DNA from: Octopus vulgaris | Lineage: Eukaryota | Assembly: GCA_951406725.2 (NCBI GenBank) | Contig: OX597820.1 | Location: 53,072,001 to 53,136,000 of the forward strand | Direction of reading: 5' to 3' | DNA length: 64,000 nt | In this document: positions 48,746-53,851 of the stretch, one piece after another | Position numbering within the stretch: position 1 is the stretch's first letter | Layout: the number at the start of each line of letters is the position of its first letter | Notes under the pieces: generated by a model | Database searches by the model: none | Seen by the model: the letters and a program-made list of their open reading frames with translations, nothing else | What the model was told of the DNA's origin: nothing | Program-made: the position numbers and the translations under genes

Positions 48746-50158
48746 GAAAGTGTACAGTATTATACATCCACTATGGCCTATCTTACCTCTAGGTTTCACA
48801 CTAGGTGTTCAACCAGCTGTTAGATAACAACACGATTATATAAACCTACGTTCTTCAGAGTTGACAGTTATGGACAACGATATGGCAACTGCTCTCTATT
48901 ACTAGAGGTGAAAAGATACATCTGGTTTGTGATTGCTGTGAAAAGACGACAAAAGAAATTGAGCAAAGTGTAAGTTAAGGTTCAAAAAACCGCCTCTGGA
49001 GGTATTGCAAAGTGACAAGAGATTTCTGTTAAAGTGCGTATAAGAAAAGTGGCCTTCCTTTTTAAGAGTAGAGAAGCAAATTCCACTCCATTCTTGTACG
49101 TAGGTATGTGTGTATATATGTATGTGTTTTTGTATGTATGTATGTATGTTTGTATGTATGTATGTTTGTATGTATGCATGCATGCATGTATGTATGTATG
49201 TATGTATGTATGTCGGACACAGGCATGACAAATTGATTAAATTCACAACCGAATTTTGAGTGGTATATCCCACTGAGGTAAGTATCTGCTTTTTTTTATG
49301 AGACTCTGATTGATCAAGACCTTGTCTTGAAATTGAATTGATAGAATATTTGACGAAAGAGTCAGGTTCATATTGACTGTATCCCATTTTCAATTGTCCA
49401 ACCTTGTTACGTGCTGCATCATGCTGATTCGGTTTAGAGATGCGTTAATTTTATGCGTCCCTATGAAAGAACTTAATAATAAATTTCTGAAGTTAATTTA
49501 CATATTTGCGAAAAGTTCATTCTGATCATTCTTTGCAGGCTAGTGACAAATAAATCAAAAGATTCTGTCCATTTGACATCATCACCTTCGCGCAGCGTAA
49601 TCACGATTATCTTTAATTTTATTTTTGCATATAGGAAAATAAGATTCACGTATGTTTTTCGCCAAAAGTGATTCGCATAATCAACAGTAAAAAAAGAGAT
49701 ATGAGTAATAACTGTAGGCAATGATATGATCGCTGATGTACTTGTTTGTGTAATGAAAGCCATCGGCAATAAAGTAATAATGTATCGATATTTCCTCACA
49801 CCGTTATATACATACGCAGACACACGCACACAGATATATGCATATACATATATATATATATATATATATATATATATATATATATATATATATATATATA
49901 TATATATATTTATATATATATATACATATATATATTTATATATATTTATATATATATATATACATACATACATATACATACATACATATATATATATATA
50001 CATACATGTATATGTATGTGTGTGTGTTTACAAAAATATATATATATACATATTATCAATAATAATAAAGGGTAAAATTAATTAGTCAATTAATAATTAA
50101 TAATTTTACCAAGTAGTTCGGTATGTTAAAGGAATCATTATCGGTAACCTTATACAAA

Positions 50159-50418
50159 AATTCTATAATTATATGCATAATTATAATTAAGGTTCAGCAA
50201 AAATTGCTTCACCACATACCGAAATTTTGAAATAGCAGTTGAATAGCATTCCACTACTATAAGATATCTCCCAGACAGTAATATTCTCAAGTCACGCAGG
50301 TAAAGAGAGATATCTTATGGTAGTGGAATAGTATTTAACTGCTATTTCTAAATTTCGGTATGTGGTGAAGCAATTTTTGCTGAACCCTAATTATAATTAT
50401 GCTTATAATTATAGAATT
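50159..50418. repeat. Fold-back element 1: ~112-bp inverted arms, 36-bp spacer
   Basis: 50159-50270 is the imperfect reverse complement of 50307-50418. Confidence 0.9.
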
Positions 50419-50564
50419 ATAGAATATATATATAAGTTCAGCAAAAATTTAGATTCAAATGAATATGGTACTTAATTTAGATGCACCAGAATTTTGTATG
50501 GTGTTATCCATAAAAATTCGTGGGGTGATTATAATCAAAATAAGCAACAAGAATGACTCCGGTA

Positions 50565-50654
50565 ATTTTGTACGATCGCTTCGTACTACATCATTTTATT
50601 AAATGTTGTCAGTATTACAACAGATTTAAGATGCTGAGTACTCATCGGCCAATT
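50565..50654 (-). ncRNA. Mutated mirror copy of type I hammerhead ribozyme
   Basis: Minus reads aattgg CCGATGA gtac...gtac GAAG c gatc g TA caaaat, with two core substitutions relative to the + copy. Confidence 0.65.
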
Positions 50655-50890
50655 ATAGAGGTTTTCCATTAATACAAAAATTTTCAAATTAAGTGGCAAT
50701 ATCATAGAGAAGGTAGATATACAGACAAAGATGTGGATTTAAATTTTAAGAACATATGAGGTAGTGAAGTCCTTTCACCACTACCTCATATGTTCTTAAA
50801 ATTTAAATCCACATCTTTGTCTGTATATCTACCTTCTCTATAATGTTGCCACTTAATTTGAAAATTTTTGTATTAATGGAAAACCTCTAT

Positions 50891-50980
50891 ATTTGGCTGA
50901 TGAGTACTCAGCATCTTAAATCTGTTGTAATACTTACAACATTTTATAAAATGATGCAGTATGAAACGATCGTACCAAAT
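50891..50980 (+). ncRNA. Type I hammerhead ribozyme, canonical core, long stem II
   Basis: Stem I atttgg (50891-96)/ccaaat (50975-80); CTGATGA (50897-903); stem II gtac..gcatc..tgttgtaa/ttacaaca..gatgc..gtat; GAAA (50963-66); palindromic stem III ACGATCGT; GUA cleavage triplet ending at 50974. Confidence 0.85.
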
Positions 50981-51173
50981 TACCGGAGTCATTCTTGTTG
51001 CTTATTTTGAATATATATATATATATATATATATATATAAGAAAATAGTAAAGTGTGAAAAAACGACAGAAGGCTTAAATGTTAAAAAATATATATATTT
51101 GTGTCAAAATGTCTGGAGAATATTGGAAAAATTTTTTTCCTTTCCTTAAAATGACATAATTTAAAAATTTTTA

Positions 51174-51213: not shown

Positions 51214-51349
51214 GTGACGTTATGTTTATATTGCATGGAATTATCGTTGTTTTTATTTCCAGGAGATTTCTAAATAAGGGGAGGTAGTGAGTGATTTTTT
51301 CCGGTGTAGGGGAGATAATCGCTTAAAAAATTTTTTTCCCATTTCCTTG

Positions 51350-51928
51350 TTAATTTCTCTGTGTCAGTATGTTCGGATGGTTGAGTCTGGGTTTGTACTT
51401 TTCAATGAAGAATGTTTCCTTGTTCAGTCTCATTTGTGTTGATGATCCGAAAGCACATTGGTAAAATGGGAAGATTAAAAATTGTGGCAGTAGTTGCTTT
51501 GCGCATTTCTCAATGTGCTCACTAAAAGGTATCATTCTATATTCTGGGAATGCAATCTGTTGTCGATGCAGTGTGCATCTGCGCCTGAGTGATAGTCCCG
51601 TGGAACCCACGTAGTCTTGGTGGCAGCCCGAGCATTTAATAACATAAATTATGTTTTCAGAGGCACAAGTAAAGTTAGATTTGATCTTAAATTTCTGTCC
51701 CTCTTTAAAGAAGAATTCTGATCCTTCCAATAGGTTAGGACATGTTGCACAGTTCGATCTACCACATTTTTTTACTTTTGCATCCGTAATTTTAGAAGAC
51801 AATTTTGCCTTTGTGAGAATCTTTTTAAGTGATTTAGGCTGTTTGTAGCTTTTAATGATTTGGTGTATGTTTAGAATTTCCTTTAATTTTGGGTTTTTAT
51901 GAAGTATTGGTAAATTCTGGGTGATGAT
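51350..51928 (-). pseudogene. Inverted duplicate of the GIY-YIG endonuclease half of the PLE ORF
   Basis: Translation is identical to the C-terminal ~190 aa of ORF 51921..53324. Confidence 0.9.
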
Positions 51929-53324
51929 CAACTTGTATACCAGTATACCTCACAATTATGGACTGGAGGCAATACAATTCTGGTTAGACCAATTTCCGGA
52001 AGAAATACCAAAAAGGATCAGTAAGGAATTCATTACCAAATCAATTGAATTCATCCTACACAATAACCACTTCATGTTTGACAATACATTTTACCGTCAA
52101 AAATCCGGAATTGCTATGGGTACAAGGGCAGCACCAGTCATTGCGAACCTAACAATGGGATACATGGAAATAATCATTTACCAGGAATCTCTATCAATCT
52201 TTGGAAACTCCCTCTCTCAATACATAAAAGAGAATTGGAAACGATTCCTAGACGATTGTTTCATTCTCTGGAATGAAAACATAGATAAACTCCTAAAATT
52301 TAAAAACCTATTGAACAGCATAAACCCAAATATACAGTTCACAATGGAATACAACCAAAAGGAGCTCCCGTTCTTGGATATACTAATTAAAAAAATTAAC
52401 CTTAAAATAGAAACAGACATTTTTTACAAAGCCACAGACGCCAAACAATACCTTCTTTTTAATTCATGCCACCCAAGACACACTAAAACAAACATCCCCT
52501 TCAACCTTGCAAGAAGGATATGCACAATAGTGTCAGAACAAAATACCAGGAACTTTAGACTGCAAGAACTCAAAAACACCCTAATTGACAGACATTACCC
52601 AGCTCAACTCATAGAGGATGGGATCAGACGTGCAACAGAAATCAACATAGAAACTTTAAGAAAAGTTCAACACAACAACACACCTTCCCCGAAAATACTA
52701 CCTTACATATCTACATACAACCCCAGAAACAAAGAAGCCTTCACCATCATCACCCAGAATTTACCAATACTTCATAAAAACCCAAAATTAAAGGAAATTC
52801 TAAACATACACCAAATCATTAAAAGCTACAAACAGCCTAAATCACTTAAAAAGATTCTCACAAAGGCAAAATTGTCTTCTAAAATTACGGATGCAAAAGT
52901 AAAAAAATGTGGTAGATCGAACTGTGCAACATGTCCTAACCTATTGGAAGGATCAGAATTCTTCTTTAAAGAGGGACAGAAATTTAAGATCAAATCTAAC
53001 TTTACTTGTGCCTCTGAAAACATAATTTATGTTATTAAATGCTCGGGCTGCCACCAAGACTACGTGGGTTCCACGGGACTATCACTCAGGCGCAGATGCA
53101 CACTGCATCGACAACAGATTGCATTCCCAGAATATAGAATGATACCTTTTAGTGAGCACATTGAGAAATGCGCAAAGCAACTACTGCCACAATTTTTAAT
53201 CTTCCCATTTTACCAATGTGCTTTCGGATCATCAACACAAATGAGACTGAACAAGGAAACATTCTTCATTGAAAAGTACAAACCCAGACTCAACCATCCG
53301 AACATACTGACACAGAGAAATTAA
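51921..53324 (+). CDS. PLE reverse transcriptase + GIY-YIG endonuclease, N-terminally truncated but uninterrupted
   Basis: RT motifs INLYTSIPH, YRQKSGIAMGTRAAP-IANL-M, WKRFLDDCF, IQFTME, LPFLDI, TDIFYKATD and SCHP-H. Cys-rich linker KCGRSNCATC (Neptune-type). GIY-YIG module NIIYVIKCSGCHQDYVGST...RR...H...E..FI. The predicted start codon comes from the inversion junction and is not native. Confidence 0.92.
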   Translation: MMINLYTSIPHNYGLEAIQFWLDQFPEEIPKRISKEFITKSIEFILHNNHFMFDNTFYRQKSGIAMGTRAAPVIANLTMGYMEIIIYQESLSIFGNSLSQYIKENWKRFLDDCFILWNENIDKLLKFKNLLNSINPNIQFTMEYNQKELPFLDILIKKINLKIETDIFYKATDAKQYLLFNSCHPRHTKTNIPFNLARRICTIVSEQNTRNFRLQELKNTLIDRHYPAQLIEDGIRRATEINIETLRKVQHNNTPSPKILPYISTYNPRNKEAFTIITQNLPILHKNPKLKEILNIHQIIKSYKQPKSLKKILTKAKLSSKITDAKVKKCGRSNCATCPNLLEGSEFFFKEGQKFKIKSNFTCASENIIYVIKCSGCHQDYVGSTGLSLRRRCTLHRQQIAFPEYRMIPFSEHIEKCAKQLLPQFLIFPFYQCAFGSSTQMRLNKETFFIEKYKPRLNHPNILTQRN

Positions 53325-53461
53325 CAAGGAAATGGGAAAAAAAATTTTTTAAGCGATTATCTCCCCTACACCGGAAAAAATCACTCACTACCTCCCCTTA
53401 TTTAGAAATCTCCTGGAAATAAAAACAACGATAATTCCATGCAATATAAACATAACGTCAC

Positions 53462-53501
53462 AAGAAATTTGAAAAGCTACACGCGAAACCGGTAATTTCT
53501 T
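53462..53501 (+). ncRNA. Minimal type I hammerhead ribozyme with U3-A8 compensatory core, in PLE 3' UTR/pLTR
   Basis: Stem I aagaaat (53462-68)/atttctt (53495-501); core TTGAAAA (53469-75); stem II gc-tacac-gc; GAAA (53485-88); palindromic stem III ACCGGT; GUA triplet ending at 53494. Confidence 0.78.
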
Positions 53502-53678
53502 TAAAAATTTTTAAATTATGTCATTTTAAGGAAAGGAAAACAAATTTTTCCAATATTCTCCAGACATTTTGACACAAATATATATATTTTTTAACATTTA
53601 AGCCTTCTGTCGTTTTTTCACACTTTACTATTTTCTTATATATTCACCCACGTGCTTTACCAAACAAACTTTCTTATC

Positions 53679-53851
53679 TATATATATATATATATATATA
53701 TATATATATATATATATATATATATATATATATATATATATATATATATATATATATATATATATATATATATATATATATATATATATATATATATATA
53801 TATATATATATATATATATATATATATATATATATATATATATATATATAT
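53679..53851. repeat. Long perfect (TA)n tract
   Basis: Directly visible, immediately 3' of the PLE. Confidence 0.95.

Follow-up and report, generated by a model that had tools for sequence, protein, structure and literature searches.

A probable pile-up of three Penelope-type insertions in a (TA)n microsatellite of Octopus vulgaris, including the stub of a non-coding hammerhead unit

In the current work, a 64,000-nucleotide (nt) stretch of Octopus vulgaris DNA (assembly GCA_951406725.2, contig OX597820.1, positions 53,072,001 to 53,136,000; referred to below as the window, with coordinates counted from its first letter) was analyzed with respect to three consecutive inverted duplications, named elements 1, 2 and 3, which lie in and beside (TA)n tracts. 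With a probability of roughly 85%, this arrangement represents stubs of three different repeat families that were inserted in turn into one (TA)n by target-primed reverse transcription of the Penelope type. The cluster itself is an ordinary pile-up of insertions of the kind made by Penelope-like elements (PLEs) in a microsatellite.

Three head-to-head inverted duplications of different age

An earlier note on this DNA, made by a model from the letters alone, had described three consecutive inverted duplications in or near (TA)n with arms of about 112, 232 and 897 bp. Self-BLAST and a repeat finder both recovered them, head to head, at 50151-50426, 50530-51015 and 51033-51928/52746-53643, the measured arms being 120, 237 and 896/898 nt, so that the inversions stand with corrected lengths. 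The arms are identical at 110/120 positions in element 1 (91.7%), 226/237 in element 2 (95.4%) and 896/898 in element 3 (99.8%, without mismatch and with 2 gaps), from which three insertion ages are deduced, the likely order being 1, then 2, then 3. The centre of each duplication consists of element sequence found on one arm only, with no foreign spacer.

Since Rfam, with its E-value mode included, returned no hammerhead family over 48000-56000 and only microRNA-type hairpins below the gathering score, the hammerheads of the window were called by pattern scans and are predicted ribozymes. A scan demanding C3-G8 picks up the element 2 hammerhead only. The two different hammerheads announced by the earlier note were indeed present, as a canonical type I motif in element 2 and a U3-A8 variant in element 3.

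An insertion signature common to the three families

First-look matching produced 2414, 2280 and 1840 candidates for elements 1, 2 and 3, respectively, which are matches rather than copy numbers; the best matches were 89-95% identical for element 1 and 95-97% for element 2, while 40 scored places of element 3 reached 97-100%. For all families, the copy statistics reported here derive from the best 30-40 matches per query and are biased to long, similar copies. Each family exhibits two fixed 3' ends, variable 5' ends, (TA)n flanks and head-to-head joins. A (TA)n tract was found at the 3' end of 12/28 element 1 copies (under a strict rule), 26/29 element 2 copies and 25/29 element 3 copies, as compared to 5% of 5000 random window positions, which bears out the (TA)n preference that had been proposed. 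The fold-back form, whose frequency among genomic copies had been suggested as a check, was encountered in 17/28 element 1 copies (arms of 29-229 nt), 10/29 element 2 copies (30-936 nt) and 16/29 element 3 copies (44-1296 nt).

In each family the inverted arm often lacks the terminal part of the long arm. Element 1 inverted arms end 90-104 nt before the long end in 9 of 17 cases, those of element 2 begin at query position 97 in 7 of 10, corresponding to a 96-nt tail, and those of element 3 repeatedly stop at 53643, which is 32-38 nt before the long end. The short end is also used by copies without inversion, 15/30 element 1 rows stopping at unit position 466-479 and 5/6 long element 2 copies at position 241. 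Of the two ends of element 2, the one at 50434 is fixed and the other is variable.

That these inversions are miniature inverted-repeat transposable elements (MITEs) with fixed terminal inverted repeat (TIR) arms, or fold-back artefacts of long-read sequencing, is hardly credible. Short hairpins in AT-rich DNA do look MITE-like, no listed contig piece crosses the whole stretch, and among the short-read contig pieces listed from public runs none spans the stretch or its three turn points. However, the arms vary widely in length around a centre made of element sequence instead of a fixed spacer, the arms of elements 1 and 2 have diverged by 5-8%, which an artefact would not show, and contigs of two public runs display inverted/sense joints at many other turn points. 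Arms and 5' ends vary in all three families, in disagreement with the fixed length of a TIR MITE, and the flanks are microsatellite, in which a target-site duplication cannot be read. Single-copy elements or fixed-arm MITEs, which the earlier note had named as outcomes that would speak against it, were not found: the families are abundant and their arms and 5' ends variable. The features are compiled in Table 1.

Table 1. Coordinates of the elements, predicted ribozymes and (TA)n tracts in the window
Feature	Position	Strand	Description
Left flank	49834..50053	.	(TA)n-rich tract, likely target
Element 1 long arm	50055..50308	-	Last ~255 nt (unit 317-572) of 572-nt non-coding hammerhead unit; 3' end 50055
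Element 1 tail	50055..50150	-	96 nt, long arm only
Element 1 short inverted arm	50307..50426	+	Unit 356-476; stops at the second fixed end of the family
Spacer, elements 1/2	50424..50433	.	Short (TA)n
Element 2 long arm	50434..50778	-	Stub of 3' untranslated region/pseudo-long terminal repeat (pLTR) of Hydra-clade PLE; 96-nt tail at 50434-50529
Element 2 mirror hammerhead	50571..50648	-	Two core changes
Element 2 short inverted arm	50779..51015	+	
Element 2 hammerhead	50897..50974	+	Predicted type I: canonical core, long stem II, palindromic stem III
Spacer, elements 2/3	51011..51039	.	(TA)14
Element 3 inverted arm	51033..51928	-	5'-truncated; GIY-YIG part and pLTR, without tail; mirror hammerhead from 51206
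Element 3 sense copy	51928..53681	+	Last ~1.75 kb of ~4.0-kb Neptune-like PLE, without ORF1 and N-terminus of reverse transcriptase (RT)
Element 3 coding fragment	51924..53324	+	RT, Zn-finger linker and GIY-YIG; residues 346-811 of family ORF2
Element 3 hammerhead	53469..53494	+	Predicted minimal type I, U3-A8 core variant
Element 3 tail	53644..53681	+	32-38 nt
Right flank	53675..53851	.	(TA)88

Element 3 is assigned to a young Neptune-like PLE

Element 3 is classified as a 5'-truncated copy of a young (~99%) 4-kb PLE resembling the Neptune clade. Its open reading frame (ORF), 51903-53324, encodes a partial RT together with GIY-YIG, with Pfam scores below the cut-off in the window copy, and because only residues 346-811 of ORF2 are present the window element cannot itself be a source element. 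The unit measures 3994-3997 nt, as judged from the spacing in two tandem pairs, and full-length copies carry a 5' ORF1 followed by an overlapping ORF2 of 811 amino acids in the -1 frame, for which Pfam (locus L092) reports RVT_1 at 30.9 bits (cut-off 29.6) and a weak GIY-YIG match (E 0.068). The translation contains a CX4CxxC linker and CCHH, fitting Neptune or Nematis as the motif is shared by both, and its RT rows resemble Neptune rows by eye in a published supplementary alignment. The U3-A8 hammerhead core was the same in 36 of 37 occurrences. The description of element 3 as a PLE encoding RT and GIY-YIG with a type I hammerhead is therefore upheld by the ORF, by the RVT_1 match in the L092 ORF2 and by the U3-A8 motif. 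Among the public runs listed as containing these sequences, none is recorded as RNA; a 2983-nt contig covers element 3 in one run guessed to be RNA, and was not taken as expression.

At the overlap of ORF1 and ORF2, a slippery heptamer T TTT TTA occurs in 8 of 9 rows (L092:1985-5601; also L149 and L098), and Phe-Leu near the ORF1 end is kept in two divergent families and in two database relatives of ORF1, which suggests a conserved programmed frameshift between the two predicted ORFs. A stimulatory structure following the slippery site was considered and rejected, the fold being weak (-9 to -13 kcal/mol) and not conserved in two other families. For PLEs, the legend of Fig. 1 of PMC8557442 mentions a frameshift, accompanied by a pseudoknot, that splits ORF1, and an open-access library gave no match for ribosomal frameshifting in Neptune Penelope-like elements. 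Other Neptune-like families (L022, L159, L006) also possess U3-A8 hammerheads 3' of their ORFs.

Element 2 is assigned to a coding PLE of the Hydra clade

Element 2 is the 3' terminus of another PLE, a coding one that is assigned to the Hydra clade. A GIY-YIG ORF was listed upstream of the element in 2/30 loci, and a query with that upstream region retrieved 881 candidates, several of which had an RT still further upstream. In all six long loci, picked for their length, RT, an asparagine (Asn)-rich linker, the endonuclease (EN) and the element 2 end stand in line, and locus L157 has the structure pLTR-ORF-pLTR over ~3.46 kb. As longer genomic copies run into RT and GIY-YIG, element 2 is not a non-autonomous element. 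Its description as a non-coding element with its own hammerhead is thus retained for the hammerhead, the core of which is intact in 31 of 35 motifs, and abandoned for the family, which joins RT-EN in 6/6 long loci; the upstream extension that had been recommended as a check leads to a coding ORF and hence away from a non-autonomous partner.

In the family protein, DKT replaces DKG (translations of L158 and L162), the linker is CxCX5C, a terminal CxxC and CxH are found around E and N, and CCHH is absent. The N-terminal RWK position reads RW-I in L157 and KW-I in L162, and on visual comparison the RT can be matched to the Hydra alignment of a published supplement. At ~3.46 kb the family exceeds the typical, though not strict, Hydra size of <3 kb. 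Further divergent Hydra-like RT/EN fragments were seen beside fetched copies (L137, L182, L231, L028 and L108), and therefore the genome contains many PLE families.

Element 1 derives from a non-coding unit with its own hammerhead

Element 1 is the truncated remainder of a non-coding unit of 572 nt that is repeated head to tail, and its family has its own predicted type I hammerhead. Walking upstream from the element, a type I hammerhead is met, followed by the element's own 3' end, and this head-to-tail junction occurs in 16/30 loci. The longest stop-free stretches of the unit (L127) comprise 48 and 43 codons. The hammerhead has a 6-bp stem I and a palindromic stem III, its core is intact in 17/30 family copies, and cleavage is predicted after unit position 280. 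Since the window copy covers only unit 317-572 and, inverted, 356-476, it is without the ribozyme. The earlier note was therefore right that a non-autonomous hammerhead family is present and mistaken as to its identity, which is element 1 instead of element 2, with the hammerhead outside the window.

Two hammerheads in tandem were present in no element 1 locus (30 loci and 30 overlapping rows of a junction search), all tandems being partial. RT or EN continuous with the element 1 unit or either sister unit was likewise absent from the fetched loci. Several candidates for such a coding link were tried and rejected: tblastn with the element 2 and 3 proteins against element 1 and sister loci yielded only adjacent, separately truncated PLE pieces; apart from one adjacent copy, nothing homologous to the three units was present in 11 stretches lying 3' of other PLE ORF fragments; and in L051 and L136 the unit begins mid-unit, or the ORF is inverted and unrelated.

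Two families related to element 1, ~70% alike over the 3' part, were found beside element 1 copies. The first, with a 564-nt unit and 2126 first-look candidates, has a U3-A8 hammerhead, fold-backs and ends ~100 nt apart (L182, L196, L046:2030-2235). The second has a 594-nt unit, occupies 40 places at 99-100% identity on many contigs, and forms both fold-backs and arrays of up to four hammerhead-bearing units, as in L233:1772-4335 with 4 hammerheads; its ends, derived from 35 loci and not from those 40 places, are ~113 nt apart. The 594-nt family is likely still active.

A motif CACGTG, or a one-letter variant, was noticed near the start of downstream sequence at window 53644-53654, in the 5' part of the element 1 unit and in the 5' region of element 3 in L091. 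We take this motif to be E-box-like, and it is possibly a promoter element in element 3 and the element 1 group.

The elements do not behave as one system

The earlier note had proposed a single PLE that repeatedly deposits itself and both short ribozyme-bearing partners at the same tract. Such a system, headed by element 3, is very improbable: all three elements have (TA)n as their target and are arranged head to head, yet they differ in tail length (32-38 nt in element 3 versus 96 nt in elements 1 and 2) and in the age of their arms, they do not recur together, and for element 2, which has its own RT-EN ORF, the proposal is already refuted. Another of the five tested families was present within ~1.5 kb in 0/29 element 2 loci and 0/29 element 3 loci, that is in 0/58 overall. 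A sister family neighbours element 1 in 3/28 loci, a circular count as two sisters were found that way, and element 2 or 3 never does. Other PLE pieces are frequent neighbours of fetched copies, as expected from the shared (TA)n target. Shuffled sequences reached the element 1 versus 3 similarity scores in 199/300 and 158/300 cases and the element 2 versus 3 score in 115/300 (same strand) and 10/300 (opposite strand), so that element 1 versus 3 similarity does not rise above shuffles. The element 3 family is young and might yet act in trans on a young non-coding family, for example the 594-nt sister.

A true autonomous/non-autonomous pair, in which element 1 would be mobilised by the Hydra family of element 2 or by a sister Hydra family, appears unlikely. 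The two elements agree in tail length (96 nt) and in having hammerheads with a long stem II, several Hydra families exist in the genome, and a 14-nt word is common to both, at 50192-50205 (+) and 50436-50449. This word, reported as a shared motif in the earlier note, is a genuine match and is weakly above chance: among shuffles, its length was reached in 2/1000 and its local score in 8/300, eight comparisons having been made. It is placed differently, however, at the extreme end of element 2 and ~140 nt inside element 1, and the ends of the two elements are without overall similarity (35/300 shuffles reach the score). In addition, the sister-family tails are ~100 and 113 nt, not 96, and the youngest sister is 99-100% identical as against 95-97% for element 2 copies.

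It is quite unlikely, too, that element 1 represents only the pLTR of an autonomous PLE that has few or no surviving coding copies and was amplified in the form of short partial tandems. The pLTRs of PLEs are able to function by themselves in trans (PMC3846280), retrozymes have been proposed to derive from pLTRs (bioRxiv 10.64898/2026.07.22.740005), and the absence of a second hammerhead from the element 1 loci seen agrees with this origin. Against it, what stands before unit position 1 is the 3' end of the unit itself and never shared coding sequence, the RT/EN matches near element 1 copies are separate neighbours, and a sister family forms true 4-unit arrays. This alternative concerns origin and is compatible with the explanation of element 1 that is preferred here and set out below.

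A model of insertion by twin priming

The three stubs are best accounted for by separate Penelope-type insertions, which could proceed as follows. The GIY-YIG endonuclease would cut both strands of (TA)n, and each freed end would then prime complementary DNA (cDNA) synthesis from the element RNA, starting at one of two internal positions that are separated by 32-38 nt in element 3 and by 96 nt in elements 1 and 2. Joining of the two 5'-truncated cDNAs head to head would generate a long arm with the tail and a short arm without it. Element 1 would likely be copied in trans by some PLE protein, a candidate step suggested by its insertion anatomy. In vitro, the protein of a Poseidon PLE cuts both strands of AT-rich DNA, reverse transcription starts at two internal RNA sites, which define the tail, and the hammerhead is dispensable (PMC11167929).

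The fold-back mechanism favoured by the earlier note fails, as a simple snap-back, at L164, L088 and L069, where it is excluded because each arm holds sequence missing from the other; such arm pairs favour two priming events over snap-back.

A bolder reading of element 1 and its sisters has a somewhat less than even chance: they would constitute a large group of hammerhead retrozymes of 560-600 nt, among them one that is still spreading, and would be pasted into (TA)n by a Penelope-type enzyme acting in trans, with two priming sites ~100 nt apart, head-to-head twin cDNAs and a hammerhead cut that sets the 5' start of the template. If true, the proposed link between retrozymes and PLEs would gain direct structural evidence, and so would a function of the ribozyme in vivo. 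Over the ~70 nt that follow the cut, the 5' boundaries of element 1 are 3.2x denser per base than elsewhere (29 in 1264 nt versus 27 in 3729, p ~2e-5), in a test for which the zone was picked with the data already in view, at least one locus is common to the two sets and one duplicate row was dropped. A T-rich barrier sits in the same zone, element 2 likewise has a truncation hot spot, which lies away from its hammerhead, and the excess near the hammerhead cut is a lead only. The L233 array starts at most about 10 nt from the predicted hammerhead cut, and other sister-family copies start elsewhere.

Several points weigh against the interpretation as three Penelope-type insertions or its extension to element 1. 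The copy sample is biased as stated above, and 9/29 element 3 copies ran beyond the fetched locus and were unscorable for inversion. The (TA)n rate of element 1 is only 12/28 under the strict rule, and no autonomous partner of element 1 was found among the fetched loci. Moreover, the priming model is carried over by analogy from a Poseidon-clade element, and Arkhipova et al. 2013 favour a published alternative, self-priming on an antisense template.

Other features in the window

At 56739-56966, (TA)n tracts enclose a fourth fold-back (97% over 169 nt), one arm of which is long and the other short; it is probably another PLE-type family, and similar hairpins were seen in L247, L193, L030 and L195. 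An element at 16290-16577, for which no match was present among the fetched loci, has terminal inverted arms of ~54 nt and is bounded by inverted (ATAG)n/(TATC)n tracts. Finally, two 184-nt tandem arrays of a common interspersed repeat, with 2.6 copies each, occupy 25870-26352 and 45854-46340.

Comparison with known systems

Published PLE anatomy comprises a 5'-truncated copy in inverted orientation together with a tail of 30-40 bp (PMC8557442; PMC3846280), and hammerhead pairs on opposite strands and U3-A8 covariation have also been described (PMC4209133). Thus, none of the head-to-head inversion, the fixed 3' tail, the targeting of (TA)n and the U3-A8 hammerhead is new for PLEs. We rank elements 2 and 3 as putative new members of known clades. 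With Neptune-clade endonuclease-positive (EN+) PLEs, element 3 shares DKG and GxKF in the RT, the CX4CxxC linker, a C-terminal GIY-YIG with CxxC and two His, partial tandems, the inverted 5'-truncated copy, a 32-38-nt tail and the type I hammerhead; there is no essential difference, element 3 being a new, young family. Its U3-A8 core is shared with the Cercyon PLEs of Schistosoma (PMC4209133).

The Hydra clade is defined by DKT, CxCX5C and a terminal CxxC/CxH without CCHH (PMC8557442, section 11), and an octopus family, Hydra-1_Obim, is already listed in the supplement of that paper. Element 2 agrees with this clade in all of these motifs, in its (TA)n target and in having a hammerhead. It differs in its size of 3.46 kb instead of <3 kb, which is due to the Asn-rich RT-EN linker (Asn-rich inserts are known from rotifer Penelopes), in RWK being seen as RW or KW followed by I, and in its 96-nt tail and ~60-nt stem II. 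Since the hammerhead listed for Hydra-1_Obim differs, element 2 belongs to a different family. An octopus repeat annotation records 31 recently active Penelope-like families, and its main text contains neither 'hammerhead' nor 'ribozyme' (PMC13282606).

Like metazoan retrozymes lacking long terminal repeats (non-LTR retrozymes), element 1 and its sisters are non-coding, AT-rich and head-to-tail, with one type I hammerhead, and the 594-nt sister forms multimers with hammerheads in tandem as those retrozymes do. Unlike them, the group has units of 564-594 nt versus 150-450 nt (PMC7229834) and consists mostly of dispersed 5'-truncated stubs with head-to-head inverted arms, (TA)n flanks and a distance of ~96-113 nt between the two fixed ends; the main text of PMC7229834 nowhere uses the term 'inverted'. 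Because of its unit size and its lack of tandem hammerheads, element 1 is called retrozyme-like rather than a retrozyme. The non-autonomous PLEs of the Chlamydomonas MRC1 type resemble element 1 in being non-coding, with pLTRs and head-to-tail insertions; their 3' end is in general similar to that of an autonomous family, and they belong to a group reported without canonical hammerheads, whereas element 1 has a hammerhead and no matching autonomous 3' end in the loci examined.

Mobilisation of retrozymes by PLEs has been proposed from shared hammerheads, co-occurrence and pLTR likeness (PMC7229834; bioRxiv 10.64898/2026.07.22.740005), and this link has so far been a hypothesis. The open-access text consulted mentions neither inverted arms or tails on retrozymes nor tails of ~100 nt, although figures, Repbase/Dfam and supplements may hold these families. 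What looks new is therefore element 1 with its sisters, which are retrozyme-like and yet bear the PLE insertion signature: non-coding hammerhead units here show PLE-specific insertion anatomy in many copies, the tails of ~96-113 nt extend the 30-40 nt of published PLEs, and the near-identical 594-nt family represents a ready substrate for a test of mobilisation in trans.

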